The notes under the pieces are model-generated. The model was not told the origin of the DNA, did not search any database, and saw only the letters and a list, made by a program, of their open reading frames with translations. Source: an uncultured Rhodospirillales bacterium (GTDB lineage: Bacteria > Pseudomonadota > Alphaproteobacteria > UBA9219 > RGZA01). From it: a stretch of DNA of 64,000 nucleotides. This document shows positions 17,389 through 61,120 of the stretch, piece by piece. A program made the position numbers and the translations under genes. Every line of letters starts with the position of its first letter. The first letter of the stretch is position 1. Location of the stretch: contig CAZMQI010000003.1 in the NCBI GenBank assembly GCA_964568585.1, positions 32,975-96,974 on the forward strand, written 5' to 3'.

Positions 17389-17464
17389 GGGCCCTTAGCT
17401 CAGCTGGGAGAGCGCTACGATGGCATTGTAGAGGTCAGCGGTTCGATCCCGCTAGGGTCCACCA
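17389..17464 (+). tRNA. tRNA-Ala (anticodon GGC) with CCA encoded
   Basis: GGGCCCTTAGCTCAGCTGGGAGAGCGCTACGATGGCATTGTAGAGGTCAGCGGTTCGATCCCGCTAGGGTCCACCA. G3:U70 identity pair and anticodon loop ATGGCAT. Confidence 0.9.
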
Positions 17465-17530
17465 GTTTTTCAATACAATTCAAGATAGCGGGTGAATCGA
17501 ACCGCTTATTTATATCAGCCTGCGAAGCAG

Positions 17531-17563
17531 GCGGGTTCGATCCCGCTAGGGTCCACCAGTTTC
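17531..17563 (+). repeat. Direct duplicate of the tRNA-Ala 3' end (T-arm plus 3' acceptor strand plus CCA)
   Basis: gcgggttcgatcccgctagggtccaccagttt repeats 17438-17467 with one extra G. An inverted T-arm-like copy (agcgggtgaatcgaaccgct) lies between them. Confidence 0.6.
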
Positions 17564-17573
17564 ACAAAATAAT

Positions 17574-25855: not shown

Positions 25856-26013
25856 ACGTATTAAACTCCGAAAATCATATATAGTGTGTGATGGCAAATA
25901 TATGCACGCAAAACGCTTTAATTCCAAGCGCAACATCAATAATATAGGCAAATAAAGCATTATTTGTGCTCGCCGTCGCCTTTATGAAACAACCACACAA
26001 GGAAAGACTCGAA

Positions 26014-27681
26014 ATGGCCTCCTCCATCGACCTCGACATTGCCCAGAAAACCCCGCTCGTGCCAATTGAAACAATTGCCGAAAAATTGGGCATACCGATG
26101 GATGCGCTTTTTCGTTACGGACATACCAAGGCGAAGATTGACCTTGGCTGGCTCAAAAAAATGCCGGAACGCAAGGCAAAGTTGGTGTTGGTAACGGCGA
26201 TTAATCCCACGGCTGCGGGCGAAGGCAAAACCACCACAACCATCGGTCTTGGTGATGCGCTGACATTGATTGGTAAAAAGACCGTGATTGCGCTGCGTGA
26301 ACCATCATTGGGGCCTTGCTTTGGGATGAAGGGCGGGGCAACGGGGGGAGGTTACGCACAAGTCGGCCCGATGGAAGAAATCAATTTGCATTTCACGGGT
26401 GATTTTCATGCCATCACTTCTGCCCACAATTTGCTCGCCGCGCTACTCGATAATCACATGTATTGGGGAAATTCCCTGAACGTTGATACGCGCAAAATAA
26501 ATTTGAAACGTGCGATGGATATGAATGACCGCGCGCTTCGTCAAACCGTGGTGGGGCTTGGTAATAACGGAATTCCGCGCGAAGACGGGTTTGATATCAC
26601 CGTCGCATCGGAAGTCATGGCGATTTTCTGTCTGGCCAAAGATGCGGATGATTTAAAGGCACGCCTTGACCGAATGGTGGTCGCACAAAAGCAAGGTGGA
26701 GGCGTCATTACCGCAGCCGATTTAAAGGCAACTGGCGCCATGGCTGCCCTATTGAAAGACGCATTAAATCCCAATTTAGTGCAGTCTTTGGAAGGTACGC
26801 CTGCCTTCATCCATGGTGGGCCATTCGCCAATATCGCGCATGGGTGTAACAGTGCGATTGCAACACATGCCGCGATGAAACTGGGTGATTATGTGGTGAC
26901 CGAAGCCGGCTTTGGTGCGGATTTGGGCGCAGAAAAATTTCTGGATATCAAATGCAGACAATCGGGTTTGAAACCGGATGCTTGCGTGGTGGTTGCAACC
27001 ATCCGCGCGCTGAAACTGCATGGCGGCGTTTTAAAAACCGATTTGGGAAGCGAAGATACGGATGCGGTGAAACGTGGCCTTACCAATCTGCAACGTCATG
27101 TGGAGAACATGAAGAAATTTGGCCTGCCCGTAGTAGTCGCCATCAATCACTTCACATCCGATACGCCTGCTGAAAGCAAAGTGGTGGAAGATGCATGCAA
27201 GGCAATGGGTGTGCCTGTCCATCTGTGCACCCATTGGGGTGATGGCGGGAAGGGCGCTAAAGCATTGGCAGAAACCGTTGTAAAATTGGCCGAAAGCGGC
27301 GTAAGCCAATTCAAGCCGATTTATGATGACAGCCTGTCATTAAAGGATAAAATCAAAACCATCGCGCAAACAATCTACCGCGCCAAAGACGTGGCGATTG
27401 ATGCGAAAGCTGCCAAAAAACTGGAACAGTTTGAAAAAGACGGCTACGGAAAACTGTCCATCTGCATTGCCAAAACGCAATATAGTTTTTCATCCGACCC
27501 AACACTCATGGGCGCACCGGAAGGATTCACATTCCCCATTCGTGATGTACGATTAAGCGCAGGCGCAGGATTTGTGGTTGCATTGGCGGGGGATATTATG
27601 ACCATGCCCGGCTTGCCGCGCGAACCGGCTGCTGAAAAAATCGGCGTTGGGGCGGACGGAAAAATTTTTGGATTATTCTAA
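26014..27681 (+). CDS. fhs: Formate--tetrahydrofolate ligase
   Basis: About 556 aa. P-loop region TPAGEGKTT. Met at 26014 preceded by AAGGAAAG. Confidence 0.9.
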
Positions 27682-27693
27682 TAAGGAGTTGCT

Positions 27694-27885
27694 ATGCCAT
27701 TCGTGAATGTAAAAATTACCAAGACAGGTGTCACCAAAGACCAGAAACGCGAAATCGTCGAAGGCATCACCGATACCTTGTCGCGCGTTCTCAATAAACG
27801 TCCCGAAGCTACCCACATCGTGATTGAAGAAGTAGAGCTCGAAAACTGGGGCGTTAACCGTAAGCTGGTTGCTGATAAGACCTAA
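27694..27885 (+). CDS. 4-oxalocrotonate tautomerase family protein
   Basis: 63 aa with the N-terminal MPFVNVK motif (Pro1 catalytic). Confidence 0.7.
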   Translation: MPFVNVKITKTGVTKDQKREIVEGITDTLSRVLNKRPEATHIVIEEVELENWGVNRKLVADKT

Positions 27886-27997
27886 ACAGCAGCCATCATG
27901 CCGCGTAGCACGAATGGAAGAATACCGCCATTAGCGTAGTATTCGACTTCATCTGCGGTATTGATGCGGCATTTGAATAGTGCCTGACGGTTTTGTC
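27881..27997 (-). pseudogene. Detached 3' remnant of an aconitase gene (last ~38 codons, intact frame)
   Basis: Minus-strand translation KRIKRQNRQALFKCRINTADEVEYYANGGILPFVLRGMMAAV* aligns with the acnA C-terminus (QDRQIPLKCRIDTADEVEYYANGGILPFVLRGMMAA*). Roughly 90% nucleotide identity to 28441-28535, and the differences are mostly synonymous. Confidence 0.6.
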
Positions 27998-27999
27998 GT

Positions 28000-28434
28000 T
28001 TAATCCTTTTTCAACAGCGATGATGAAATTGGCTTTAGTTTTTTCATAGGCGAGTGATGGCTTAGCTGGCGATCCTTTAAAAGGGATAGATAAACTTTAA
28101 ATGCAGCAATAAAGGCTGCTAATCCACAAACAAAGACGAATATCAAAAATACGTATTGTATAATTTCATTTTCACACAGAATTATATTCATTAGCCATGC
28201 ACGCCTCCCCATTAGAGGGCAGCTTTGGAATACACTAGTTGAGGCGACAAAAAATAGTGCGGCTGAGCCAGCCAAAAGATAAATTATAGAAAGCTTTTTT
28301 CCATATTTGGAGGCGCTGCTATTAAGCTTGTTATTGTAAATAAGAAAAAAATGATACCCTGTGCCTAACAGCAAAAAGCAAATAGTAGCCGATGAAAATA
28401 CCAGTTTCATCGGCTCTATCGAATATTCCAGCAT
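28000..28434 (-). CDS. Hypothetical polytopic membrane protein lying between acnA and its 3' remnant
   Basis: 144 aa with about 4 predicted TM segments. Flanked by the acnA stop (28441) and the acnA-like fragment (27881-27997). Confidence 0.45.
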   Translation of the reverse strand: MLEYSIEPMKLVFSSATICFLLLGTGYHFFLIYNNKLNSSASKYGKKLSIIYLLAGSAALFFVASTSVFQSCPLMGRRAWLMNIILCENEIIQYVFLIFVFVCGLAAFIAAFKVYLSLLKDRQLSHHSPMKKLKPISSSLLKKD

Positions 28435-28440
28435 GCTATT

Positions 28441-31182
28441 TTAAGCAGCCATCATGCCGCGTAGCACGAAGGGTAGAATACCGCCATTGGCGTAGTATTC
28501 GACTTCATCCGCGGTATCGATGCGGCATTTAAGCGGGATTTGACGGTCTTGCGTTCCAGCTTTCGAGATGGTCAGGAATAATTCCATCCCCGCCTTCAAA
28601 CCTTTTTCGATACCGATGATGGATAAATCTTCCGAACCATCCAGTTTCAAATCAGCACGGGTCATGCCGTTCTTGAATTCAAGCGGCAACACGCCCATAC
28701 CCACCAAATTGCTGCGGTGAATACGTTCAAAGCTTTCGGCGATTACAGCGCGCACGCCCAGCAGCTTGGTGCCTTTGGCGGCCCAATCGCGGCTAGAACC
28801 CGTGCCGTATTCTTTACCAGCAATAATCATCAATGGAACATTGGCGGCGATATAACGCATTGCTGCATCATAAATCGGCATGGTCTCTCCTGTTGGCAGA
28901 TATTTGGTAATACCGCCTTCGGTGCCCGGCAATAATTCATTCTTGATACGAATATTGGCGAATGTACCTCGCATCATGATTTCGTGATTACCACGGCGTG
29001 CACCGTACGAATTGAAATCTTCCTTGGTCACTTTGTGTTCGACCAGATATGCGCCTGCTGGGCTTTTAATCGTGATGTCGCCTGCGGGGGAGATGTGGTC
29101 GGTGGTGATGCTATCTGCAAATACCGCTAATGGTTTTGCGCGCAAAATATCCATCACCTTGGTTGGTTGTTTCTGCATGCCTTCGAAAAGTGGCGGATGT
29201 TTTACGTATGTTGAAATTGGATCCCATTGATAGGTAAGACCCGTTGCGGTCTTCACTTTTTGCCATTCTTCTGGGCCTTTGAACACATCGGCGTAGCGGT
29301 CATGGAACATTTTGGGTGTCAGGCATTTTTCAACGGTTTGTGCAACCTCGGCATTGCTTGGCCAAATATCTTTCAAGAATACCGGCTTGCCATCGCGGCC
29401 TGTGCCGATGGGATCTTTTTCAAAATCAATCGTCACGGTTCCAGTCAATGCATACACAACGCAAAGTGGTGGTGATGCAAGATAATTCGCTTTTGTTTGC
29501 GGGTTCACGCGGCCTTCGAAATTGCGGTTGCCGGAAAGCACGGCGGCAACAGCCAAGTTACCCTTGGTAATCGCAGCCGACACAGCTTCAGGGAGCGGGC
29601 CGGAATTACCGATGCAGGTTGTGCATCCATATCCCACCAAATTAAATCCAAGCATATCCAGCGGCATATCAAGGCCAGCGGCATGCAGATAATCGGTCAC
29701 GACTTGGCTGCCCGGTGCAAGCGAAGTCTTCACCCATGGCTTGACGGTCAATCCTTTCTCAACGGCTTTTTTCGCAACAAGGCCAGCTGCAACCATCACG
29801 CTGGGGTTTGATGTATTGGTGCATGATGTGATGGCGGCAATAACAACGTCACCATGGGTGACGGTGTAATCGGTACCTTCGACTTGGGTCTTCGTATTAC
29901 GTGCATCGCCTTCGATTTTGTATTTCTTCAAATCGTCTTCAAACGCTGCGGCAACCTTTGATAATGCAACGCGGTCTTGTGGCAAGCGCGGGCCAGCAAG
30001 GGATGGTTCAACCGTTGATAAATCAAGCTCCAGCGTATCGGTGAATTCCGGATCTGGTGTGGTTGCATCGCGCCACATGCCTTGTTCCTTGGCATATGCT
30101 TCCACCAAAGCAACACGGTCAGCATCACGGCAGGTGAAGTTCAAATAGCGAATGGTTTCTGCATCAATCGGGAAGATACCGCATGTCGCGCCGTATTCTG
30201 GCGCCATGTTGGCAATCGTCGCGCGGTCGGCAAGTGGAAGGGTATCAAGGCCAGGGCCAAAGAATTCAACGAATTTATTCACCACGCCTTTTTTACGCAG
30301 CATGTTGGTAACCGTCAGTACCAAGTCGGTTGCGGTGCAACCTTCTTTCAATTTGCCTTTCAATTTAAATCCGATAACTTCGGGAATAAGCATCGATGTC
30401 GGTTGGCCAAGCATGCATGCTTCTGCTTCAATACCGCCAACGCCCCAACCCAACACGCCAAGTCCGTTGACCATGGTGGTGTGGCTGTCGGTACCAACAA
30501 GCGTATCAGGATATGCAATCATCTTGCCGGTTTGGTCCTTATCGGTCCAAACAACTTGGGCAAGATATTCAACGTTTACTTGGTGGCAAATGCCAGTGCC
30601 CGGTGGAACCACGCGGAAATTTTCAAATGCTTGTTGGCCCCAACGTAGGAACGCATACCGTTCGCCGTTACGTTCGAATTCTTTGGCAACGTTATATGCA
30701 AATGCATTCTTGTCGCCGAATTTATCAACCATCACCGAGTGATCGATGACCAAATCAACGGCGCATAACGGGTTGACCGATTCAACATTGCCGCCAAAAC
30801 TTTTCACAGCTTCACGCATCGCAGCCAAATCCACCACGGCTGGAACGCCAGTGAAATCCTGCATCAGCACGCGCGCAGGACGGTATGCGATTTCGCGGTC
30901 ACTCTTTTTAGTTTTGATCCATTCGGCAATCGCCTTAATGTCATCCACGTTCACGGTGGTGCCGTTTTCAAAACGCAGCAAATTTTCCAAAAGGATTTTC
31001 AACGAATAGGGAAGGCCAGCGAGGCTGCCGATTTTTTGTTCAGCCGCTTTCAGACTGTAATAGTCATAGGTTTTGCCATTGGCAGTGAGAGTGCGGCGTG
31101 TAGCCAGCGTGTCATTTCCAGTGCGAAGAGCCATGAGAGAGCAACCTTTTGATGAGTGAGAGGCGGGATAATGAAGCCTCAC
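28441..31182 (-). CDS. acnA: Aconitate hydratase A
   Basis: 913 aa. Fe-S cluster cysteine motifs (ITSCTNTSNP and GCTTCIGNSG) and the aconitase swivel domain. An alternative start lies at 31134. Confidence 0.95.
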   Translation of the reverse strand: MRLHYPASHSSKGCSLMALRTGNDTLATRRTLTANGKTYDYYSLKAAEQKIGSLAGLPYSLKILLENLLRFENGTTVNVDDIKAIAEWIKTKKSDREIAYRPARVLMQDFTGVPAVVDLAAMREAVKSFGGNVESVNPLCAVDLVIDHSVMVDKFGDKNAFAYNVAKEFERNGERYAFLRWGQQAFENFRVVPPGTGICHQVNVEYLAQVVWTDKDQTGKMIAYPDTLVGTDSHTTMVNGLGVLGWGVGGIEAEACMLGQPTSMLIPEVIGFKLKGKLKEGCTATDLVLTVTNMLRKKGVVNKFVEFFGPGLDTLPLADRATIANMAPEYGATCGIFPIDAETIRYLNFTCRDADRVALVEAYAKEQGMWRDATTPDPEFTDTLELDLSTVEPSLAGPRLPQDRVALSKVAAAFEDDLKKYKIEGDARNTKTQVEGTDYTVTHGDVVIAAITSCTNTSNPSVMVAAGLVAKKAVEKGLTVKPWVKTSLAPGSQVVTDYLHAAGLDMPLDMLGFNLVGYGCTTCIGNSGPLPEAVSAAITKGNLAVAAVLSGNRNFEGRVNPQTKANYLASPPLCVVYALTGTVTIDFEKDPIGTGRDGKPVFLKDIWPSNAEVAQTVEKCLTPKMFHDRYADVFKGPEEWQKVKTATGLTYQWDPISTYVKHPPLFEGMQKQPTKVMDILRAKPLAVFADSITTDHISPAGDITIKSPAGAYLVEHKVTKEDFNSYGARRGNHEIMMRGTFANIRIKNELLPGTEGGITKYLPTGETMPIYDAAMRYIAANVPLMIIAGKEYGTGSSRDWAAKGTKLLGVRAVIAESFERIHRSNLVGMGVLPLEFKNGMTRADLKLDGSEDLSIIGIEKGLKAGMELFLTISKAGTQDRQIPLKCRIDTADEVEYYANGGILPFVLRGMMAA

Positions 31183-31423
31183 ATATAGTAGACGCGCGTT
31201 AAAGAGAGGTGAACGCCCGGCATATCGCTATGAAATCACTGGCATTCGTTCCGTTTGCGGTATTTGCAACTTCAGGCTGAAACCTTTTTAGGAATCTATT
31301 GCAGTATTAGTTTCAATGGCCTATATGAGTACTGCAACTGAATAGAAGGTTTTTAATTGCATGGCCGCTGCTGGCGATCCAGAAGACAATAATGATGGCG
31401 GGTTTCGCAACACCCAGCCAACC

Positions 31424-31825
31424 ATGACTCTTTCCTGGACAGAGCAGGATGAGATTTTGACCAACCTTTGGTCAAAGGGCGAAAAACCAGAATCAATCGC
31501 TGTTACGTTGAACCGTTCAGTTGCCGCCGTAATGACCAGAGCGGCGCGTCTTGGACTGCAGCGTCGTTTCGCACCCGGACGCAAGCCCAAGAAAACAGGT
31601 GATGCTGAAACTGGTCTTGCCAATCTTCGTAATGCCGCACGCCTTTCTGCACAATTGCAAACCACACCCGCACAGCTATCACACCGTATTTGTTTGATGT
31701 GTTTAAGCCGTTTCCAATCGCAGGGACGCCATAATCGCATTTGTGGCAATTGCAAAGGCTCACCTGAATATCGTTCCGCAGCCGGATTGCCAGATGTCGA
31801 CGTTTCATCGGGCGGCGGCGTCTAA
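31424..31825 (+). CDS. GcrA-family cell-cycle regulator-like protein
   Basis: N-terminus MTLSWTEQDEILTNLWSKGEKPESIAVTLNRSVAAVMTRAARLGL matches the GcrA DNA-binding domain. The C-terminus CLMCLSRF...RICGNC resembles the GcrA Cys-containing tail. The ORF is open from 31361. Confidence 0.6.
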   Translation: MTLSWTEQDEILTNLWSKGEKPESIAVTLNRSVAAVMTRAARLGLQRRFAPGRKPKKTGDAETGLANLRNAARLSAQLQTTPAQLSHRICLMCLSRFQSQGRHNRICGNCKGSPEYRSAAGLPDVDVSSGGGV

Positions 31826-31883
31826 TTAAGACGCAATTTACTCCTTAAGTTTTCTTAAACGAACCATCGCTAACTTTATTCAT

Positions 31884-32540
31884 ATGAATAAACAAGATGC
31901 CGTTCAAACCGTTTTAATCCGTAATAGTTTTTACCGCGACGGGTATCGTTCGCTGCTGAAAGTCGCGCTTGTGCAGGGCGGCGTCATCATCGCGCTGATT
32001 GCCGCGATTGTGTATCTCGTTTTAGCCAGCGATGTGAAGCATGTGTTTTTTGCGACCAACGTTGATGGCCGCATCATGCCGATTGAACCAATCGCCGAGC
32101 CATACTTCCAGGATGACCAGGTCATCACATGGGTTGCGAAAACCGCACGCGAAGTTATGCAGATGGATTATCTCAATTATCGTACCTCGTTGGATAAAGC
32201 GAACAGCAAGTTCACACAAGCAGGTCGTATCGACTTCCACGCTGCGCTTAAAGACAGCCGTTTGATTGAAGCGATTGAGAAGAACAAGCTGGTCGTTCAA
32301 TTGAAAGTTGAAGGTGCGCCGCAAATCTTGAAGAAGGCCATCACGAAGGAAGGCGCGTATGTGTGGTTCCTCTCCATGCCGATCAGCATCGTGTATGACG
32401 GACAAGATCCACCGCAACCATTCCACGGAAAACTACAAGTACGCGTTGACCGTATCGACTTCCTTGAAAACCCCGATGGTATCGCATTCGGCCAATGGGT
32501 AGTGGGCGAAGAAAATATCCTCAATCGTGTACAAAAGTAA
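31884..32540 (+). CDS. T4BSS inner-membrane component, DotI/IcmL (TraM)-like
   Basis: 218 aa with a single N-terminal TM helix and a periplasmic domain. It is first in a gene order matching icmL-K-E-G-C-D-J-B. Confidence 0.5.
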   Translation: MNKQDAVQTVLIRNSFYRDGYRSLLKVALVQGGVIIALIAAIVYLVLASDVKHVFFATNVDGRIMPIEPIAEPYFQDDQVITWVAKTAREVMQMDYLNYRTSLDKANSKFTQAGRIDFHAALKDSRLIEAIEKNKLVVQLKVEGAPQILKKAITKEGAYVWFLSMPISIVYDGQDPPQPFHGKLQVRVDRIDFLENPDGIAFGQWVVGEENILNRVQK

Positions 32541-32582
32541 TTCTGGCAAAAGTAATTTTGGCAAAAATAATCTGGATTAGTC

Positions 32583-33263
32583 ATGGCAACAAAACGGCCA
32601 ACTACCGCCATTAAACCCGAACAGGTTTATAAGGTTGTGTTTCATCCATCCGAACCAGCGCCGGTTGGTTCATCGGCGCAGTTCCGTTTCGCCAGAGGGC
32701 TGGTGACGATTTTATCATACATCATCGCGATGCTCGTCTTCTGCGTGTTCATGGTATTCTTCATGTTCGCGGATACATATTTCTATCACTTCAGCGTGCT
32801 TGATCGTGAACGCATTCCCGAGCGGCTAGTGACGATGCATCCACTAGATAATCCGAACTTGACGCGTACGGGCATCACCAACATGGCGATGAATATTGCG
32901 ACAGAAGTATTGACCTTTGGCTTCAATAACGCCGATGAACGCTTGCTGAAATCTCGCCGCCTGTTTACCGAAGCTGCGTGGCTGCGTTTTGCCAAGGCAT
33001 ATCTTAAGGAAGGCCGTCTTGATAAAATCAAGCTCAACCAGCAAGTGCTGACCAACATCGCAAGAGATAATGCGGTGATTGTGGAAGAGGGCAAGAATTC
33101 ATCTGGCGAACTGCAATGGGTCGTACAGGTTCCAACTATTACAACTTACCAAGCCGGTAAAAAAATCGTGCCGGTCCGAAGTGTCCTGCAGATCACGCTC
33201 ATCAAGGCATCGACCCTTGAGCATCCCGAAGGTGTTGCAATTGATGGTTGGGAACAACTGTAA
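32583..33263 (+). CDS. Paralogous DotI/IcmL-like (or DotJ/IcmM-like) membrane protein
   Basis: 226 aa with the same architecture as the upstream gene (TM helix plus a periplasmic domain of similar length). Confidence 0.45.
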   Translation: MATKRPTTAIKPEQVYKVVFHPSEPAPVGSSAQFRFARGLVTILSYIIAMLVFCVFMVFFMFADTYFYHFSVLDRERIPERLVTMHPLDNPNLTRTGITNMAMNIATEVLTFGFNNADERLLKSRRLFTEAAWLRFAKAYLKEGRLDKIKLNQQVLTNIARDNAVIVEEGKNSSGELQWVVQVPTITTYQAGKKIVPVRSVLQITLIKASTLEHPEGVAIDGWEQL

Positions 33264-33473
33264 GGTTCCGCATCGCGCCCAAATCACCTAGAAACTATCC
33301 GGCAAATCACCCCGCAAATCAGGGCCCAACTCGGGCATCTTTACTTCTCGTTAACTTCCCAGTCCCTACTCTAACCGTGTTTGATTCTTTCCTGCCATAG
33401 GGGCAAGAAAAATAGAATCTAACGCCGGTTGAAGCATTGACGGGAGTCTTGAAGAAGATTCTAGTGAAAACAG

Positions 33474-34799
33474 ATGACGATTCGTGACCTCAAATCATTG
33501 ATAGGTAGACCTTTACGGCATTTAGCCGTTTCGGGCGGCGTACTCCTTGTGACATTACTATGCACAGGGATTTCCACAGCTTATGCACAGACCATTTTGC
33601 CTGCCGCGCTGATGGCAACATCTTCCCCTGCGATATTGCCCCCTCCATCAACATCTCAGGCAACATCCCCGACATTATCAATGGAAGCAAATCTTGCGCC
33701 GCCTGCAATGGAAGCGCCTGCGCTCGCTCATCCTGCTTTAGCAATGCCGATTGCATCTGAATCAACCGCGCCACTTCCAACCTCTACGACGACAACCACC
33801 ACTACAACTACCGATGCACCTCCGCCACTTACCATTTCAACGGATACTACACCGCCACCTGCGCCACCAACTGAAGCGCTTGGAAGAACCGCAAGCGTGG
33901 ATCGTCCTGCATCCAGCGTGATGCCACTTGATCCACCGCCCTTGCCGCAAGAAAGCCGTTTGGACAATGCCATCCGTAATGAAGCTGAACGTTCATTCTA
34001 CGATGCCAAAAAACAAAAATATCAATCAACGTTTGAACGCGCTTACGAAGGACTTGTTCCGCTAGGCCCAAATGAAGTGCGCGATACGATGAGCCGTTAT
34101 GAACGCACGCAGCGCGCATCCGTTCCACCATCTACGGGACAGCCACGCGGCCAAGTCCGCATCAAAACATTATCGCTGGAACCTGGTTCTGAACCACCCA
34201 CCATCAATATTTCGTCGGGTTATGTAACGACGATTACGATTTTGGATGCAACGGGCGAGCCATGGCCCATTCTTGATTTAGGGATTGGCGGAAATTTTGA
34301 AGTGAGCAAAACAGGCGGCGGTAATCACGTTATCCGCGTGATGCCACTGACACGTTTTGGTTATGGTAATCTGTCGGTCTTGTTACAGGATTTATCAACG
34401 CCGATTATTTTCAAGCTGGCTTCCGGTGGCGCAACGGTGGATTACCGTTTTGACGCACGCGTTCCGCGTCTTGGCCCCAACGCCAAACTATCGCTGATTG
34501 ATAAGAAGAACAGATTACAAGCGGGCTCAGCCGACATCATGGGGTTCCTTGATAACGCACCGCCGCCCGAAGCAAAGCGCGTTCGCATCAATGGCGCAGA
34601 CTCTCGCACCATGGCATGGACGGTAGATCGCCGCATGTTCGTGCGTACACCGCTCACCATGTTATCGCCATCTTGGGATTCCAGTGTGTCATCCGCGGAT
34701 GGCACCACGGTATATGAATTAACTGAAACGCCCGTCCTTATTATGTCTGATAATGGTGTGCTGGTACGCGCAAGAGTGGCACCCAAGGAAGAAGAATAG
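33474..34799 (+). CDS. DotH/IcmK (TraN)-like outer-membrane-associated T4BSS core protein
   Basis: Signal peptide, then a Pro/Thr/Ala-rich linker (including a run of 10 Thr), then a C-terminal beta-rich domain of about 250 aa. It follows the icmL-like genes. Confidence 0.45.
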   Translation: MTIRDLKSLIGRPLRHLAVSGGVLLVTLLCTGISTAYAQTILPAALMATSSPAILPPPSTSQATSPTLSMEANLAPPAMEAPALAHPALAMPIASESTAPLPTSTTTTTTTTTDAPPPLTISTDTTPPPAPPTEALGRTASVDRPASSVMPLDPPPLPQESRLDNAIRNEAERSFYDAKKQKYQSTFERAYEGLVPLGPNEVRDTMSRYERTQRASVPPSTGQPRGQVRIKTLSLEPGSEPPTINISSGYVTTITILDATGEPWPILDLGIGGNFEVSKTGGGNHVIRVMPLTRFGYGNLSVLLQDLSTPIIFKLASGGATVDYRFDARVPRLGPNAKLSLIDKKNRLQAGSADIMGFLDNAPPPEAKRVRINGADSRTMAWTVDRRMFVRTPLTMLSPSWDSSVSSADGTTVYELTETPVLIMSDNGVLVRARVAPKEEE

Positions 34800-34801
34800 T
34801 C

Positions 34802-36178
34802 ATGACCAACAACAACGCAGATGATTTTGATCAGGATTTTTCGGACGCAACGGTACAACGTGCGCCTGCTGCAAAGCCAACTATGGCGAACAACATCGCC
34901 GCTGCGTGGCAAGGCAGCCCGTTGTTCAAAATGTTTGTGTTGGTGGTGATTGTTGGTGCACTCGCTGCTGCTGCCATCGCGATTTTCTCCGGCAATGAAA
35001 AGGATATTCCTGGTTCATCCGTGCGTTCCGCTCCCGGGTTGACCGAAGCACCAGGTGCCAAAGCGCCGCCAGCTTATGTGGATGCTGTGAACGACGCATC
35101 CGTCAAACGTGCGGAAGAAGCATTGCAACAAGGCAAGAGCGCCATTCCAACGCCTGTGTCGGGCGATGAAACAAAAGCGGGTCTTGGCGATCAAGGTGAT
35201 GAATCGCAATATGATCCTTTGGCAGAATTCCGTCCCAATACTCCGCAAGATGCAGCGCCATCCGAGCAGCAAGACCAAACACCTGTTGAAACCATCGACA
35301 GCGAATTGCTGAGCAAGATGCAATCGCAAATGACCAATTTGTTTGATAGCTGGCGTCCGGCTGGAATTAAAACCATACAGATTCAAGAAATGTCAGCGCG
35401 GCAAGCGACACCGGTTTCAACCACCACCCAGCAGAATGCAAAAACCCTTGTTGCATCGGGTAGCATTTATTACGGCGAAATGTTGATGGAAGCGAATTCC
35501 GATGCGCCTGGCCCGATTGTCGCACAGATTCTATCAGGTCCGTTTGCGGGTGGCCGCGCGATTGGCGCGTTTGAGGTTACACGCGAATACCTGATCATCC
35601 GTTTCACAAAGATCAGCTACAAGAAAAAAGACTATGCAGCTGATATTCTTGCGGTTGACCCGAATACAACCTTGGGCGCACTGGTAACCGAAAAAGATAA
35701 CCGATATTTTACGCGCGTTCTTTTGCCGGCAGCTGCGGCATTCCTTGAAGGGTTCGGTCAGGCATTAGGCACACCATCCAATAGTATTATCAGCAATGAT
35801 GGTCAGACAGTCGTATTGCAGCAATCCAAACAGGGTGTTGAAGACGGGCTCTATCGTGGTCTTGCGGAAGGTGCAACGACCGTTGGTGGTTTCTTCAGGG
35901 ATGAAGCAGCCGCAACCAAACCGCTTATTCGCGTTGCTGTCGGAACGCCGATGGGACTATTTTTTGTGAATGCAGTAACCGACGGGAACCAGAACGGTCG
36001 TAGTGCGAATGTGATTGAAACCCCAATTCAGACACAAGTGCAGCAACCGCCGCCGACTTTTTCCTCATCGGGCGCCTTAATTAATGACAATACCATCCCA
36101 AATACAGGATTAACCACGGTTCCCGCTTCATCTCTTGCGAACAGTGGTGTCAACATTATACAATCCGGTACCAAATAA
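34802..36178 (+). CDS. DotG/IcmE (TraO)-like T4BSS core protein with a VirB10/TrbI-like C-terminal domain
   Basis: 458 aa. N-terminal TM helix, Pro-rich periplasmic linker, and a C-terminal VirB10-type region (FTKISYKKKDY...). Short compared with Legionella DotG and lacks repeats. Confidence 0.55.
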   Translation: MTNNNADDFDQDFSDATVQRAPAAKPTMANNIAAAWQGSPLFKMFVLVVIVGALAAAAIAIFSGNEKDIPGSSVRSAPGLTEAPGAKAPPAYVDAVNDASVKRAEEALQQGKSAIPTPVSGDETKAGLGDQGDESQYDPLAEFRPNTPQDAAPSEQQDQTPVETIDSELLSKMQSQMTNLFDSWRPAGIKTIQIQEMSARQATPVSTTTQQNAKTLVASGSIYYGEMLMEANSDAPGPIVAQILSGPFAGGRAIGAFEVTREYLIIRFTKISYKKKDYAADILAVDPNTTLGALVTEKDNRYFTRVLLPAAAAFLEGFGQALGTPSNSIISNDGQTVVLQQSKQGVEDGLYRGLAEGATTVGGFFRDEAAATKPLIRVAVGTPMGLFFVNAVTDGNQNGRSANVIETPIQTQVQQPPPTFSSSGALINDNTIPNTGLTTVPASSLANSGVNIIQSGTK

Positions 36179-36228
36179 TCCGGTTACCCCCATATAGCCA
36201 AGACATATAAGTTTTAAGAGGCACATCA

Positions 36229-37587
36229 ATGGATAAAGACGACCCGTTCAATCGTCCTGCAAACCCACAGGGGGGCGGAGAAAATGATTTTGAAGATGAT
36301 GCGCGCTATGATGACGCGATAACACCTTCCGTGCGCGAAGAAGAATACGCAGCAGGTCAGGAAGAATGGGATCAGCCAATCGACGAGCTTGCTGAAGATG
36401 ACCAGCACATGGAAGCTCAGCCACAACCACGTAAAGACCCATTCGCCGCAGATGATGAAGGCCCGCTGGAAGATGATTTTTCTGAGCATTCGCACGAAGC
36501 TCATGAGCATGATGGCGAACATGATGCAGAACATCATGACGGCGATGAAGGTCTTGAGCATGACCCAGAGGTAGATGGTTCCGAAATGCAAGCACCGCCA
36601 CGCGCTGCGGGCGGGATGAAATTGCCATCCAATATTATGAAATACGTTCCCTATGTCGGCGGTGGTATCGCCGCATTGGTGATTGCATTCTTTGGCTATC
36701 AAATGTTTGCAGGTGGTTCGTCGTCTGAACCAACACAGCCTTCGCTAGAAAACCAGAATACATGGGATTTGCAGCCTGCACCAACACAAGCGCAACCTGA
36801 ATTAACCGCGAATAATACACAGCCAGCCCCAGCATCATCAGGCAGTAATGTCATAACGCCTGTTACCACCCCCATGGAACAGCAACCCCAACAGGCGCCA
36901 TTACCAGTTGCAACCGCACCTAATCCGCTTGAAAGCCGTGTTGCAGAATTAACCGCGCAGCTTGATCAGATGAGACAAACCCAAGATGATTTGACGCAAA
37001 AATTGCAAGCAGCACAGCAAGCCGCGCAGCAGGCAGCACAACAGCCGCCATCCATGGATGAAAATTCCAAAGCTGCGACTGCTGCGTTGAATGCACGCAT
37101 TGCCGAGCTGGAACAAAAACTAGCAACCGCTTCAACTGGTGCACAAACGACAACCTCAACCACCACCACGTCGTCTGGTGTGGATGCGCCGTTGAGTAAA
37201 GCTGCAGCGCGTAAAGCGGCACGTGATGCGGCAAGAGCAGCACGTCAGGCAGCAGCAGATGCCGCGCCTGCTGAAACCACAACCCGCAAAAGCAAACAAG
37301 CTAGCACCGATTTTATGGCAGCCAAGAAAAGCAAAGCTGCCAAGAAACGCAAAGCTGCTGAAGCCAACGAAGATACAGGCTTTGAGCCAGTCGCACGTTC
37401 ATCCTTCCAAGGTTGGATTTTGCGTTCGGCACAACCTGGTTCGGCATGGTTATCCCAAGGACCTTATAGCAGCGATCTTCGCCGCGTAGTTCCGGGCGAT
37501 AAAGTGCAGGGACTTGGCACCGTGACCTCCATCCACCAAATCGCGGGGCGATGGGTTGTTGAAGGTACGCAAGGCGCGGTTCGCTAG
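36229..37587 (+). CDS. DotF/IcmG (TraP)-like bitopic membrane protein
   Basis: Acidic, His-rich cytoplasmic N-terminus (HEAHEHDGEHDAEHHDGDEGLEHD), one TM helix, a Gln/Ala-rich coiled coil and a C-terminal globular domain. The position matches icmG. Confidence 0.4.
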   Translation: MDKDDPFNRPANPQGGGENDFEDDARYDDAITPSVREEEYAAGQEEWDQPIDELAEDDQHMEAQPQPRKDPFAADDEGPLEDDFSEHSHEAHEHDGEHDAEHHDGDEGLEHDPEVDGSEMQAPPRAAGGMKLPSNIMKYVPYVGGGIAALVIAFFGYQMFAGGSSSEPTQPSLENQNTWDLQPAPTQAQPELTANNTQPAPASSGSNVITPVTTPMEQQPQQAPLPVATAPNPLESRVAELTAQLDQMRQTQDDLTQKLQAAQQAAQQAAQQPPSMDENSKAATAALNARIAELEQKLATASTGAQTTTSTTTTSSGVDAPLSKAAARKAARDAARAARQAAADAAPAETTTRKSKQASTDFMAAKKSKAAKKRKAAEANEDTGFEPVARSSFQGWILRSAQPGSAWLSQGPYSSDLRRVVPGDKVQGLGTVTSIHQIAGRWVVEGTQGAVR

Positions 37588-59764: not shown

Positions 59765-61120
59765 ATGCGTAAGCCAATTGAGTACCCTCACGATAGTCGT
59801 GCGTCGATTTTTGGTGCAAGAGGGGATTTTTTAAAGGCAGGAATGAACATGAAAAGAAGTCATATGGGACTATTTTATAAGGCTATTACCATCGTTTCTT
59901 TTTTATCGATTGCGTTGATAGGCCACGACTTGCAAGCCGTCACGCTAGGGACATCATCAGCAAAGCAAATCGGTTTTAGAGTTGCAAATTCAGGCGCCAC
60001 CAATGGCGCCACACAAAATCAAGGCATCATTGATCAGCCACCTGTCGTTATTCAGGGTCGTTCAGGAAACGCCCAGCAGCAATCCCAACAACAAGCCCCG
60101 CAAAATCAGAATACTGCGCGCGCGCCAAATGGTTACGCGCAAGCTGGCGCTCCATCCATGGCGATGGAACCGGTTGTTGAAGGGTTTGGTGACAAGGTTC
60201 CGCTCACCGTTGCCATCCAGCAAATTCTTCCACAAGGTTATGGCTACACATTAGGCGACGGCGTTGATGCAGGTCAGCTTGTTAGCTGGCGCGGTGGTCG
60301 TTCGTGGTCAGCTGTGTTGCAGGACATGCTTGGTCAGGCCGGTCTTGCTTATTCGGTAAATGGACGTTCTGTTGCGATTAATGGCAATGGTGCATCCCCA
60401 ACCATCGTAACTGGTACGCCTTCGATGCGTGTTCAGCCGCAACCTGTTATCCAGCCTGTTCAATCAGCCCCGGTTGTTGTTCAACAGCCAGTGATGATGG
60501 ATCCAGTGCCTGTCATGCAACCACAACCACAAATGGTCATGCAGCAACCTCAAATGCAACCAATGATGCAGGTGCAGCCGCAGATGCAGCCAGTGATGAT
60601 GCAGCCGCAGCCGCAAATGGTTATGCAGCAACCCCAGATGCAACCAATGGTGCAGTCACAGCCAATGATGATGCAGCCGCAAGGTCAGCAACAAGTAGTG
60701 ATGATGCAGCAGCAGCCACAAATGATGATGGTCGATCCACTAGGTCAACCCATGATGATGCAGCAGATGGCGCCGGCACAACAAGTTGTGCCAGCTTCAA
60801 CGGCACCTCAGCCATTGCAAATCGAAAATCCATTAGTGTTCCAATCGCAAACATGGACCGCTGCTCCTGGTCAAACGCTTCGCACATTGCTTCAAAACTG
60901 GTGTGCACGCGTTGGTGTCGAACTGAACTGGACTGCGGAATTCGATTACCCAATTATGGCGACGATGAATATGACGGGCACGTTTGAAGAAGCGGTTCGC
61001 GTATTGCTCATAGGATTTGATGGCGCAAAACCAACGCCACGCGGACGTTTGCACTACAACCCGGCAGCCGGACAATCGATTTTGATTGTTGAAGCTGACG
61101 GCAATCATTATGGGGACTAA
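59765..61120 (+). CDS. PilL/TcpQ-like periplasmic protein with a Gln/Pro/Met-rich repeat spacer
   Basis: Signal peptide. Low-complexity (QPQMQPMMQ)n region. C-terminal region of about 100 aa resembling the TcpQ C-terminal domain, directly upstream of a secretin lipoprotein. Confidence 0.45.
   Translation: MRKPIEYPHDSRASIFGARGDFLKAGMNMKRSHMGLFYKAITIVSFLSIALIGHDLQAVTLGTSSAKQIGFRVANSGATNGATQNQGIIDQPPVVIQGRSGNAQQQSQQQAPQNQNTARAPNGYAQAGAPSMAMEPVVEGFGDKVPLTVAIQQILPQGYGYTLGDGVDAGQLVSWRGGRSWSAVLQDMLGQAGLAYSVNGRSVAINGNGASPTIVTGTPSMRVQPQPVIQPVQSAPVVVQQPVMMDPVPVMQPQPQMVMQQPQMQPMMQVQPQMQPVMMQPQPQMVMQQPQMQPMVQSQPMMMQPQGQQQVVMMQQQPQMMMVDPLGQPMMMQQMAPAQQVVPASTAPQPLQIENPLVFQSQTWTAAPGQTLRTLLQNWCARVGVELNWTAEFDYPIMATMNMTGTFEEAVRVLLIGFDGAKPTPRGRLHYNPAAGQSILIVEADGNHYGD

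Follow-up and report, generated by a model that had tools for sequence, protein, structure and literature searches.

The 3' end of the aconitate hydratase gene acnA is present twice in the 64,000-nucleotide window (the whole stretch of DNA that was analysed): once at the end of the live gene and once as a remnant beside a convergent tautomerase gene, with AT-rich DNA and an orphan open reading frame (ORF), orf144, lying between the two copies (Table 1). The remnant is a dead, decaying acnA fragment that carries a frameshifting deletion and a diverged stretch and lacks a start codon. Its alignments show it to be a mosaic, with a distal 88 nt that resembles the genome's own acnA and a proximal part that is equally far from the resident gene and from those of sister species. 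The whole structure is probably the scar of a single recombinational insertion into a flexible slot just 3' of acnA.

Table 1. Features of the acnA 3' region and its surroundings (positions are those of the window).
Feature	Position	Strand	Description
Formate-tetrahydrofolate ligase (FTHFS) gene	25966-27681	+	PF01268, assigned to this gene in identical and in related contigs; conserved anchor on the right of the slot
4-Oxalocrotonate-tautomerase-family gene	27694-27885	+	63 aa; PF01361, E 8.8e-19, 67.6 bits against a cut-off of 22; convergent with acnA
Remnant 3' end	27882-27887	-	Extra Val codon and TAG stop, from sequence reading and alignment
Remnant zone A (repeat copy 2)	27888-27975	-	83/88 to the live acnA end (82/87 codon-aligned); 68-73/87 to sister species
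Remnant zone B	27976-27998	-	Strongly diverged: 12/23 to resident acnA, 11-14/23 to sister species; adjoins the point of the 40-nt gap
Remnant zone C	27999-28025	-	Homologous to the acnA codons for IIGIEKGLK; 22/27 to resident acnA, 24/27 to L095; E 6.6e-5 to L095 acnA
orf144	28000-28434	-	Orphan ORF, 144 codons; 3-4 hydrophobic helices predicted from hydropathy; starts 6 nt after the acnA stop
Segment X	28026-28440		Lineage-specific AT-rich insert, ~415 nt; GC 0.33-0.42 against ~0.5 in flanks
Candidate acnA terminator	28387-28415	-	Perfect 11-bp stem, 7-nt loop, then T-rich tail; starts 26 nt past the acnA stop
Live acnA	28441-31134	-	Aconitate hydratase, 897 aa from ATG at 31134; the ORF listing extends to GTG at 31182
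Zone A0 (repeat copy 1)	28444-28531	-	Last 88 coding bases of live acnA
Rest of acnA segment represented in remnant	28532-28621	-	B0 28532-28554; 28555-28594 (40 nt) absent from remnant; C0 28595-28621

Local alignment and a repeat search both show that the final 88 coding bases of acnA (28444-28531) recur on the minus strand at 27888-27975, with identity at 83 of 88 positions (94%), and a longer alignment gives 87% identity over 108 nt. The copies are separated by 556 nt from start to start and form the sole long direct repeat of this kind in the window. The first-pass annotation had already noted that the acnA 3' end recurs downstream, and this is confirmed, with the block moved from 27886-27980 and 28441-28535 to the coordinates given here; the frame that it had described as about 38 codons long is indeed open, but runs for 42 codons on the minus strand (KRIKRQNRQALFKCRINTADEVEYYANGGILPFVLRGMMAAV, ending in a stop). 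By tblastn, this frame matches AcnA residues 878-913 at 31 of 36 positions (E 3e-18). Its stop codon, TAG at 27884-27882 on the minus strand, overlaps the tautomerase stop codon, TAA at 27883-27885 on the plus strand, as the first-pass annotation had read from the sequence. Homology runs past the near-identical block, as far as position 28025 of the remnant and position 28621 of acnA. A 40-nt deletion in the remnant, corresponding to acnA 28555-28594, shifts the frame, and homology then returns at 27999-28025, which matches acnA 28595-28621 at 22 of 27 positions, as good a match being found in 0 of 2000 shuffles. Both the repeat and its extension are significant, and in total the remnant represents approximately the last ~180 bases of acnA in a partly decayed state. 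A further extension beyond 28025, hinted at by tblastn (LSIPFKGS), was rejected for lack of support at the nucleotide level.

The window comes from a metagenome-type assembly, the differences in zone A are mostly synonymous and at the level expected of strains or close species, and one Logan contig stops at 28434, immediately ahead of the repeat; each of these would fit an artefact in which the assembler joined the acnA ends of two strain haplotypes. Such an error is nevertheless extremely unlikely. Three Logan assemblies from independent sequencing runs are 100% identical to the window over 27600-28800, and the two of these other than the truncated contig span the whole structure. The longest exact stretch common to both copies is 27 nt, too short to mislead an assembler with k of at least 31, which, with the identical independent assemblies, argues against an artefact. 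In addition, zones B and C, with their 40-nt deletion, are physically joined to zone A, and no functional gene could have them as an allele.

Zones C, B and A of the remnant are collinear with acnA residues ~854-913, zone C being out of frame relative to zones A and B. Zone A is 94% identical to this genome's own acnA, compared with 78-84% to those of sister species, whereas zone C lies equally far from every member of the clade (21-24 of 27 positions) and far from the more distant L087-L089 (12-13 of 27). Zone B differs from resident acnA at 11 of 23 positions. Differences thus number 5 of 87 in zone A and 16 of 50 in zones B and C together (Fisher P = 1e-4), the counts for zones B and C resting on few sites (23 and 27 nt), and divergence steps from 6% to about 32% at 27975/27976. 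It had been proposed that the pattern is the footprint of an insertion, or of homologous recombination with foreign DNA carrying a different acnA allele. The proximal remnant, equally distant from resident and sister acnA, agrees with an origin from a different allele, but zone A bears a specific resemblance to the resident gene. One foreign allele therefore cannot account for the entire remnant, and a mosaic history, by gene conversion or a crossover tract, is needed.

The remnant had also been regarded as something other than a decayed copy, kept under coding selection. The first part of this view is contradicted by the 40-nt frameshifting deletion, the stretch diverged at 11 of 23 positions and the lack of a start codon in the remnant frame (ORF listing), which mark it as a dead gene fragment. 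As to the second part, a bias towards synonymous changes is confirmed. A count of substitutions in the codon-aligned block of zone A (87 nt) gives five differences, four synonymous and one non-synonymous (D to N), with pS 0.198 and pN 0.015, and the last 29 residues encoded by the two copies differ at one position. The bias would have P ~0.01 if both copies drifted neutrally, but under a fairer null, in which one copy is constrained and the other free, our own arithmetic on these five differences gives P ~0.07. The 4:1 synonymous bias, which comprises five sites only, would sit more easily with two alleles that both once functioned than with conversion and subsequent neutral decay.

The 42 open codons and the conservation of zone A could be taken to mean that the remnant is functional, whether as a small peptide, as a fusion to orf144 through a +1 slip on the A-run GAAAAAGG (28005-28012), or as DNA that serves the convergent genes as terminator or 3' UTR. 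Slippage by +1 on AAA-A at 28011-28008 would fuse orf144 to the remnant frame, and on the plus strand 27870-28005 folds with slightly greater stability than its shuffles (z = -2.15). The frame, however, has no start codon, nothing apart from the A-run supports a frameshift signal, folding of the minus strand is unexceptional (z = -0.63), Rfam gives no match and the remnant is found in no relative, all of which make a function scarcely credible.

The DNA between the copies, segment X, has a GC of ~36% against ~50% in the flanks. Comparison with acnA, the remainder of the window and 90 related loci revealed no similarity, and the segment is absent from nine related genomes, in keeping with its earlier description as an insertion. 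The 144-aa ORF reported between the copies is present in the ORF listing, and its last eight codons and stop overlap remnant zone C in a different frame. The stop-free run of 146 codons to which it belongs was reached in one of 3000 dinucleotide shuffles, and a chance origin of this open frame is unlikely. A word-indexed search and an exhaustive phmmer search of 1.84 billion representative proteins identified no relative of orf144; the sole phmmer match is a shorter gene call of the same sequence, covering the C-terminal 63 aa, on another contig. Likewise, no relative was identified in plasmid and phage collections by tblastn, and no significant match in Pfam. An AF2 model from the single sequence is helical with a pLDDT of 62, too weak for a fold search. 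No donor of segment X was found in the window or the 90 related loci, or, by way of orf144, in the protein, plasmid and phage collections.

These properties of segment X bear on another conceivable origin for two direct copies in tandem orientation 556 nt apart, a plain local duplication of the acnA 3' region with subsequent decay, by which segment X would be decayed acnA and orf144 a chance ORF. Upstream of zone C, a weak collinear tblastn match (LSIPFKGS against LPLEFKNG) with an E-value of 0.03 in a tiny database would accord with such an origin, but this extension amounts to just 8 of 24 positions at the nucleotide level by our own count. Segment X is otherwise unrelated to acnA despite adjoining an 81%-identical block, differs in base composition, and contains a stop-free run that shuffling rarely produces. 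In such a duplication the DNA between the copies would itself duplicate what lies upstream of the repeated part, but segment X has no significant similarity to acnA at either the DNA or the protein level. A tandem duplication is accordingly very improbable.

The live gene gives no indication of foreign origin at its 3' end. Its relatives among AcnA proteins (897-899 aa) carry PF00330 and PF00694 and are 97-71% identical over 100% of the length, placing the product within AcnA. Nucleotide identity to acnA from the sister species L085 and L090 is uniform along the whole gene, and a foreign origin of the live 3' end was rejected on this basis. The region 28380-28420, which includes the candidate terminator, has a fold energy of -19.2 kcal/mol, and the hairpin covers an internal ATG of orf144 (Met9). 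A promoter scan yielded nothing above shuffle expectation, the hairpin alone standing out, and an Rfam search of 27400-28900 gave no match.

Relatives of the locus were gathered via protein search and exact-protein look-ups. Ten genomes share the order DotH, DotI, DotI, GcrA-like gene, acnA, slot, FTHFS and petABC, and they fill the acnA-FTHFS junction with unrelated DNA, which identifies it as a flexible slot. Its contents include an ORF for a 134-aa secreted protein; bare spacers of ~440 and 480 nt; nitroreductase, tautomerase, methyltransferase and SDR genes; AsnB and OTCase; and ORFs of 199, 220, 260 and 266 aa. Only the ORFs of L087 and L088 are related to each other, at 28%, and a common ancestral slot gene was therefore rejected. 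The tautomerase has an orthologue in L085 that is 95% identical and one codon shorter, and of the 73 loci that a metagenome scan with the tautomerase yielded, none had acnA or FTHFS in its vicinity. Comparison of the acnA-tautomerase junction among relatives, which the first-pass annotation had proposed, places the remnant only in the present genome, as it is absent from nine related genomes bearing other DNA in the slot. The same annotation had likened the overlap of the remnant's stop to that of an original acnA end. The remnant is derived from acnA and is placed where an acnA end could abut the tautomerase, but no relative shows the two genes directly abutting, other genes intervening in L085 and L093, so this idea stays interpretive.

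The overlap of the remnant with the tautomerase stop, like that of a complete gene's end, would also be expected if a second, once-complete acnA (a xenologue or tandem duplicate) had lain between acnA and the tautomerase and been deleted down to its last ~140 nt, leaving segment X as spacer or as the residue of a neighbouring gene. The synonymous-biased zone A would then reflect past evolution within a working gene, and in zone C amino acids are exchanged conservatively (IIAVEKGL against IIGIEKGL). Against this, segment X contains no further trace of acnA, none of the relatives compared has a second acnA copy at the locus, and zone A is much closer to the resident gene than are zones B and C, so that a later conversion would still be needed. 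A second gene is thus distinctly unlikely.

The probable insertion into the slot can be envisaged as follows. Approximately 0.42 kb of AT-rich DNA with orf144 would have entered at the acnA 3' end and displaced or duplicated the acnA tail, giving two copies of the last ~180 nt. The copy joined to acnA would provide the working C-terminus and stop, and the copy beside the tautomerase would be a displaced pseudo-3' end without a start codon, which would since have lost 40 nt, with a shift in frame, and diverged strongly in its proximal part. The distal 88 nt may represent either a strand-exchange tract or a later gene conversion from the live copy 556 nt away. The order of these events, the choice of original copy (live tail or remnant) and the donor are matters that we infer. 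The mosaic requires a second step or a heteroduplex-repair tract, and this was counted against a single insertion, as was the failure to find either a donor or a conspecific genome free of the insert by which the event might be polarised or dated. In homology-facilitated illegitimate recombination (HFIR) or a Campbell-type single crossover, one homologous anchor together with an illegitimate or single crossover imports adjacent foreign DNA. Such insertion can leave a partial duplicate of the anchor that is as long as the homologous segment. HFIR is described in PMC3240628. acnA resembles such a homologous anchor; however, uniform divergence between the copies is predicted, and the jump at 27975/27976 means that an account by HFIR or single crossover needs an extra conversion or repair step.

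A sharp boundary between a 94%-identical and a diverged block is also what site-specific integration might leave, with a small integrative element, or an integrase-less stump of the cis-mobilizable kind, entering the acnA 3' end and restoring the gene by its own acnA-like tail. The 88-nt repeats would then be attL and attR, and zones B and C an older acnA piece from a previous host. Elements that enter the 3' end of a protein or tRNA gene restore it and duplicate attL/attR, as do ICESt1/ICESt3 in fda and the integrase-less CIMEs. As in these, direct repeats of the 3' end of a housekeeping gene bracket foreign AT-rich DNA and acnA is intact: the repeats, identical at 83 of 88 positions, flank segment X, and the working 3' end of acnA is one of the two. 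Furthermore, the block that must restore the reading frame shows synonymous-biased differences, the proximal remnant shows no specific relationship to the resident gene, and a second att-like scar is present at tRNA-Ala within the same window. Unlike ICEs and CIMEs, however, the insert is only ~0.4 kb and lacks an integrase or excisionase; its 415 nt, filled by orf144, which has no Pfam match, hold no recombinase gene and no room for one, and no relative of segment X or orf144 was identified in the loci and collections searched. The repeats are long (88 nt) and imperfect, a mismatch of 6% being unusual for the core of a tyrosine recombinase. Other genomes have insertions in the slot without such repeats; none of the nine related genomes with other slot insertions carries an acnA remnant, and acnA is therefore not a recurrent att site in the clade. 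Integration of this kind appears unlikely. A broader notion, that the last ~90 nt of acnA serves as a reusable landing pad for orphan-gene cassettes with acnA-like tails in this Dot/Icm-bearing alphaproteobacterial lineage, is quite improbable. If it were true, cassettes would enter and leave by recombination within the ~90-nt block, which selection would keep similar because each integration must rebuild the aconitase C-terminus, and this would explain the synonymous-only drift of zone A beside a freely decaying proximal part.

In its layout, the insertion that we favour has a parallel in C-terminal displacement, the source of the 'orphan' 3' tips that follow rhs, cdiA and T6SS effector genes. 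A T6SS case from V. cholerae is the subject of PMC5361080. As in C-terminal displacement generally, a full-length gene is followed by new DNA and then by a start-less displaced 3' end in the same orientation, the displaced acnA copy begins with homology to the gene body, and the process is presumed to be driven by recombination within the gene's conserved portion. However, acnA encodes a housekeeping enzyme whereas rhs, cdiA and T6SS effectors are polymorphic toxins, there is a single displaced tip and no array, and both acnA tips encode nearly the same peptide (one residue differing in the last 29). Neither a differing new tip nor a cognate partner gene was found, orf144 being an orphan of no assignable role and without a link to immunity function.

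The acnA-tail scar is ordinary in kind, at a spot where gene content changes frequently, and no new biological principle is at stake in it. For annotation, the 42-codon frame is to be treated as a pseudogene fragment and not as a gene, and orf144 as a lineage-specific predicted orphan ORF. The locus matters mainly for the annotation and history of the present genome, and the mosaic remnant, with one young and one old end, is a compact and tidy case in which conversion between short direct repeats could be studied.

The last 88 coding bases of acnA (28444-28531) recur downstream at 27888-27975, with 83 of 88 positions identical, as found both by local alignment and by a repeat search. This bears out the duplication described in the first-pass annotation, with slightly corrected coordinates. 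Ungapped extension of the match gives 87% identity over 108 nt, and the copies, which lie 556 nt apart, form the sole long repeat of this type within the 64-kb window. The second copy, hereafter the remnant, can be read on the minus strand as KRIKRQNRQALFKCRINTADEVEYYANGGILPFVLRGMMAAV followed by a stop, a frame of 42 codons that matches AcnA residues 878-913 at 31 of 36 positions and whose TAG (27884-27882) overlaps, as previously noted, the TAA (27883-27885) of the convergent tautomerase gene (Pfam PF01361, E 8.8e-19). The 144-aa ORF reported between the copies (orf144) was also recovered. Three sequencing runs, each assembled independently, yielded contigs that agree with the window at 100% identity across 27600-28800, and the longest exact run common to the two acnA copies is 27 nt, so an assembly artefact is unlikely. 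The Logan contig of SRR12822861 has one end at window position 28434, approximately 10 nt short of the repeat; an assembly at k=31 should cope with the repeat, as the copies have no 31-mer in common, and the contig end could reflect low coverage or population heterogeneity at the junction.

Elsewhere in the window, the 3' end of a tRNA-Ala(GGC) gene (17389-17464) recurs 94 nt downstream (region 17389-17573), with GGTTCGATCCCGCTAGGGTCCACCAGTTT exact at 17534-17562, 90% identity over 40 nt and approximately 70 nt between the copies; this is an att-like scar, such as elements leave when they integrate into a tRNA gene or excise from it. At 60563-60730, a 63-nt unit with many ATG, CAG and CCG triplets occurs in two diverged copies, which encode M/Q/P-rich peptide repeats inside a 451-aa ORF (59765-61120) whose C-terminus matches Pfam TcpQ (E 8.4e-12).

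Features of the acnA 3' region, with remnant zones A to C running from the acnA stop side (distal) further into acnA (proximal)
Feature	Position	Strand	Source	Differences from live acnA
acnA	28441-31134	minus	ORF listing	
orf144, 144 codons, between acnA copies	28000-28434	minus	ORF listing	
Zone A (87 nt, codon-aligned)	27888-27974			5/87
Zone B	27976-27998			11/23
Zone C	27999-28025			5/27

Just proximal of the 88-nt block, the match to acnA falls to 12/23 in zone B, and 40 nt of acnA (28555-28594, approximately AGMELFLTISKAG) are then missing from the remnant. Homology returns in zone C, which matches acnA 28595-28621 at 22 of 27 positions and encodes IIAVEKGL, compared with IIGIEKGL in AcnA. 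A score as high was reached in 0 of 2000 shuffles in the adjacent search space and in 2 of 2000 when the whole insert was compared with 570 nt of acnA, and zone C also matches the acnA of sister genome L095 directly (26/30, E 6.6e-5); the homology is therefore significant, and approximately the terminal 181 nt of acnA are represented in the remnant. The remnant had been regarded as not decayed; however, the 40-nt deletion shifts its frame and the ORF listing contains no start codon for it, making it a dead gene fragment, a pseudogene in decay. The last eight codons and stop codon of orf144 are the zone C sequence in a different frame. The 3' end of orf144 (28005-28012, minus strand) reads TTG AAA AAG GAT TAA, and a +1 slip on its run of five A would lead into the open remnant frame (KRIKRQ...), probably by coincidence.

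The remnant is a mosaic, with zone A differing in divergence from zones B and C combined (Fisher P = 1e-4). Zone A specifically resembles the resident acnA, with 82 of 87 positions identical, compared with 68-73 of 87 for six sister genomes. Zone C is equidistant from the resident acnA (22/27), L095 (24/27) and other clade members (21-22/27), and matches the more distant L087-L089 at 12-13/27, while zone B exhibits approximately 50-60% identity to every clade member. The distal block separated from the resident acnA far more recently than the proximal remnant did, and no single allele, foreign or local, accounts for the whole. The earlier reading, an insertion or an exchange with a foreign allele, is partly supported: an insertion has left its footprint here together with another acnA-like tail, but a single foreign allele under selection does not account for that decaying tail. 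A foreign 3' end on the live acnA was rejected, as identity with L085 and L090 stays level along the gene (0.81-0.93 per 150 nt). The AcnA of one sister lineage (L091, 4582-4857; L092, 2943-3218) contains an insertion of 8 residues, and its loop is rewritten (TITRSASDAVARSAEQTTQIPLKCRI), at exactly the site where the remnant diverges most and lacks the 40 nt; within the clade, this surface loop seems to be a hypervariable stretch of AcnA.

Zone A has five differences, of which four are synonymous and one is non-synonymous (D to N; pS = 0.198, pN = 0.015); a mostly synonymous pattern had been taken to indicate coding selection. The bias has P ~0.01 under neutral drift of both copies, but under a fairer null, with the live copy constrained and the remnant free, the expected synonymous share is ~0.37 and, by our own arithmetic, P(>=4/5 synonymous) is ~0.07. 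Outgroup polarisation places D to N and CCC to CCA on the remnant lineage. The pattern is only suggestive of past coding selection on the remnant, alongside clear decay outside zone A.

The AT-rich segment X (28026-28440) between the copies has a GC content of 33-42% in 150-nt windows, with flanks of ~50%, and the wider stretch 27976-28443 (468 nt) has 37%. Outside zone C, nothing in X resembles acnA, and X likewise matches neither other parts of the window nor any of the fetched loci. Since X does not derive from acnA, a plain tandem duplication is excluded. Of 3000 dinucleotide shuffles of the 468-nt stretch, only one attained its stop-free run of 146 codons, so orf144 is a real coding frame or was one until recently. 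It possesses three or four hydrophobic segments, and its AF2 model is all helices at low confidence (pLDDT 62). A word-indexed protein search found no relatives, nothing matched among plasmids and phages, and the sole hit of exhaustive phmmer over 1.84e9 representatives was this very sequence under an alternative gene call of 63 aa; orf144 is therefore a strict orphan in the searched collections. Its start lies 6 nt past the acnA stop, and no ribosome-binding site is obvious there. At 28387-28415, 26 nt past the acnA stop, a hairpin with a perfect 11-bp stem and a T-rich tail covers its internal Met9 codon; the fold of 28380-28420, containing the hairpin, has -19.2 kcal/mol. The hairpin looks like a candidate acnA terminator, and expression of orf144 is uncertain.

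A protein search yielded relatives in an AcnA clade at 97-91% identity and a more distant set at 84-80%; the best AcnA match beyond the clade has only ~68-73%. All ten contexts recovered keep the order DotH/IcmK, two DotI/IcmL, GcrA-like ORF, acnA, slot, FTHFS (formate-tetrahydrofolate ligase gene), petABC, where the slot is the stretch between acnA and FTHFS; the L087 contig is short and reaches upstream only as far as the GcrA-like ORF, and the L091 contig ends before FTHFS. Directly upstream of acnA in the window lies a set of type IVB (Dot/Icm-type) secretion genes (31361-37587), which consists of two DotI/IcmL genes along with DotH/IcmK and a TrbI/DotG-like gene; a GcrA-like 154-aa ORF separates the set from acnA. 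The Dot/Icm-acnA order is kept in eight related metagenome-derived loci labelled Alphaproteobacteria (L085, L088-L091, L093-L095).

What fills the slot is unrelated from genome to genome. It holds a 134-aa secreted ORF and a tautomerase in L085 and L086 (AcnA 97% identical to the window); spacers of ~440 nt in L090 (96%) and ~480 nt in L094 (95%); nitroreductase, tautomerase, methyltransferase, SDR and an ArsR-type regulator in L093 (95%); AsnB, OTCase, an HTH regulator and then nitroreductase in L091 (94%); and ORFs of 199 aa in L095 (93%), 260 aa in L087 (84%), 266 aa in L088 (82%) and, after a rhodanese, 220 aa in L089 (80%). Among the slot ORFs, only those of L087 and L088 are related to each other. 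The slot is a flexible islet, a small hotspot of gene turnover. The comparison with relatives' acnA-tautomerase junctions that the first-pass annotation proposed was run: the remnant is absent from L085-L091 and L093-L095, and acnA directly abuts tautomerase in none of the compared loci. Among the compared genomes, the remnant is unique to the window's lineage.

Integrase-type att duplication at the acnA 3' end fits the geometry of the repeat; however, a recombinase is absent, the insert is tiny, and other insertions at the slot occur without a remnant. The likeliest history, held with rather better than even confidence, is one acnA-anchored recombinational insertion. The geometry, the mosaic pattern, the decay and the restriction to this lineage are seen directly, and from them we infer the order of events, the donor and the conversion step. 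A single event with the acnA 3' end as homologous anchor would have imported X and given acnA its second tail, whether through a single crossover of Campbell type, an illegitimate join coupled to a homologous crossover, or 'C-terminal displacement', which is known for rhs, cdiA and T6SS effector genes. In the displaced tail, the proximal part would stem from another allele within the clade, or simply be old, and the distal 88-nt similarity would have been kept or made by the crossover heteroduplex tract or, alternatively, by a subsequent gene conversion with the live copy, at a distance of 556 nt, as template. A further reading, of low probability, would make the acnA tail a landing pad that small cassettes use repeatedly and that selection maintains. 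The type of structure is already well known, and the window locus is a new instance of it.
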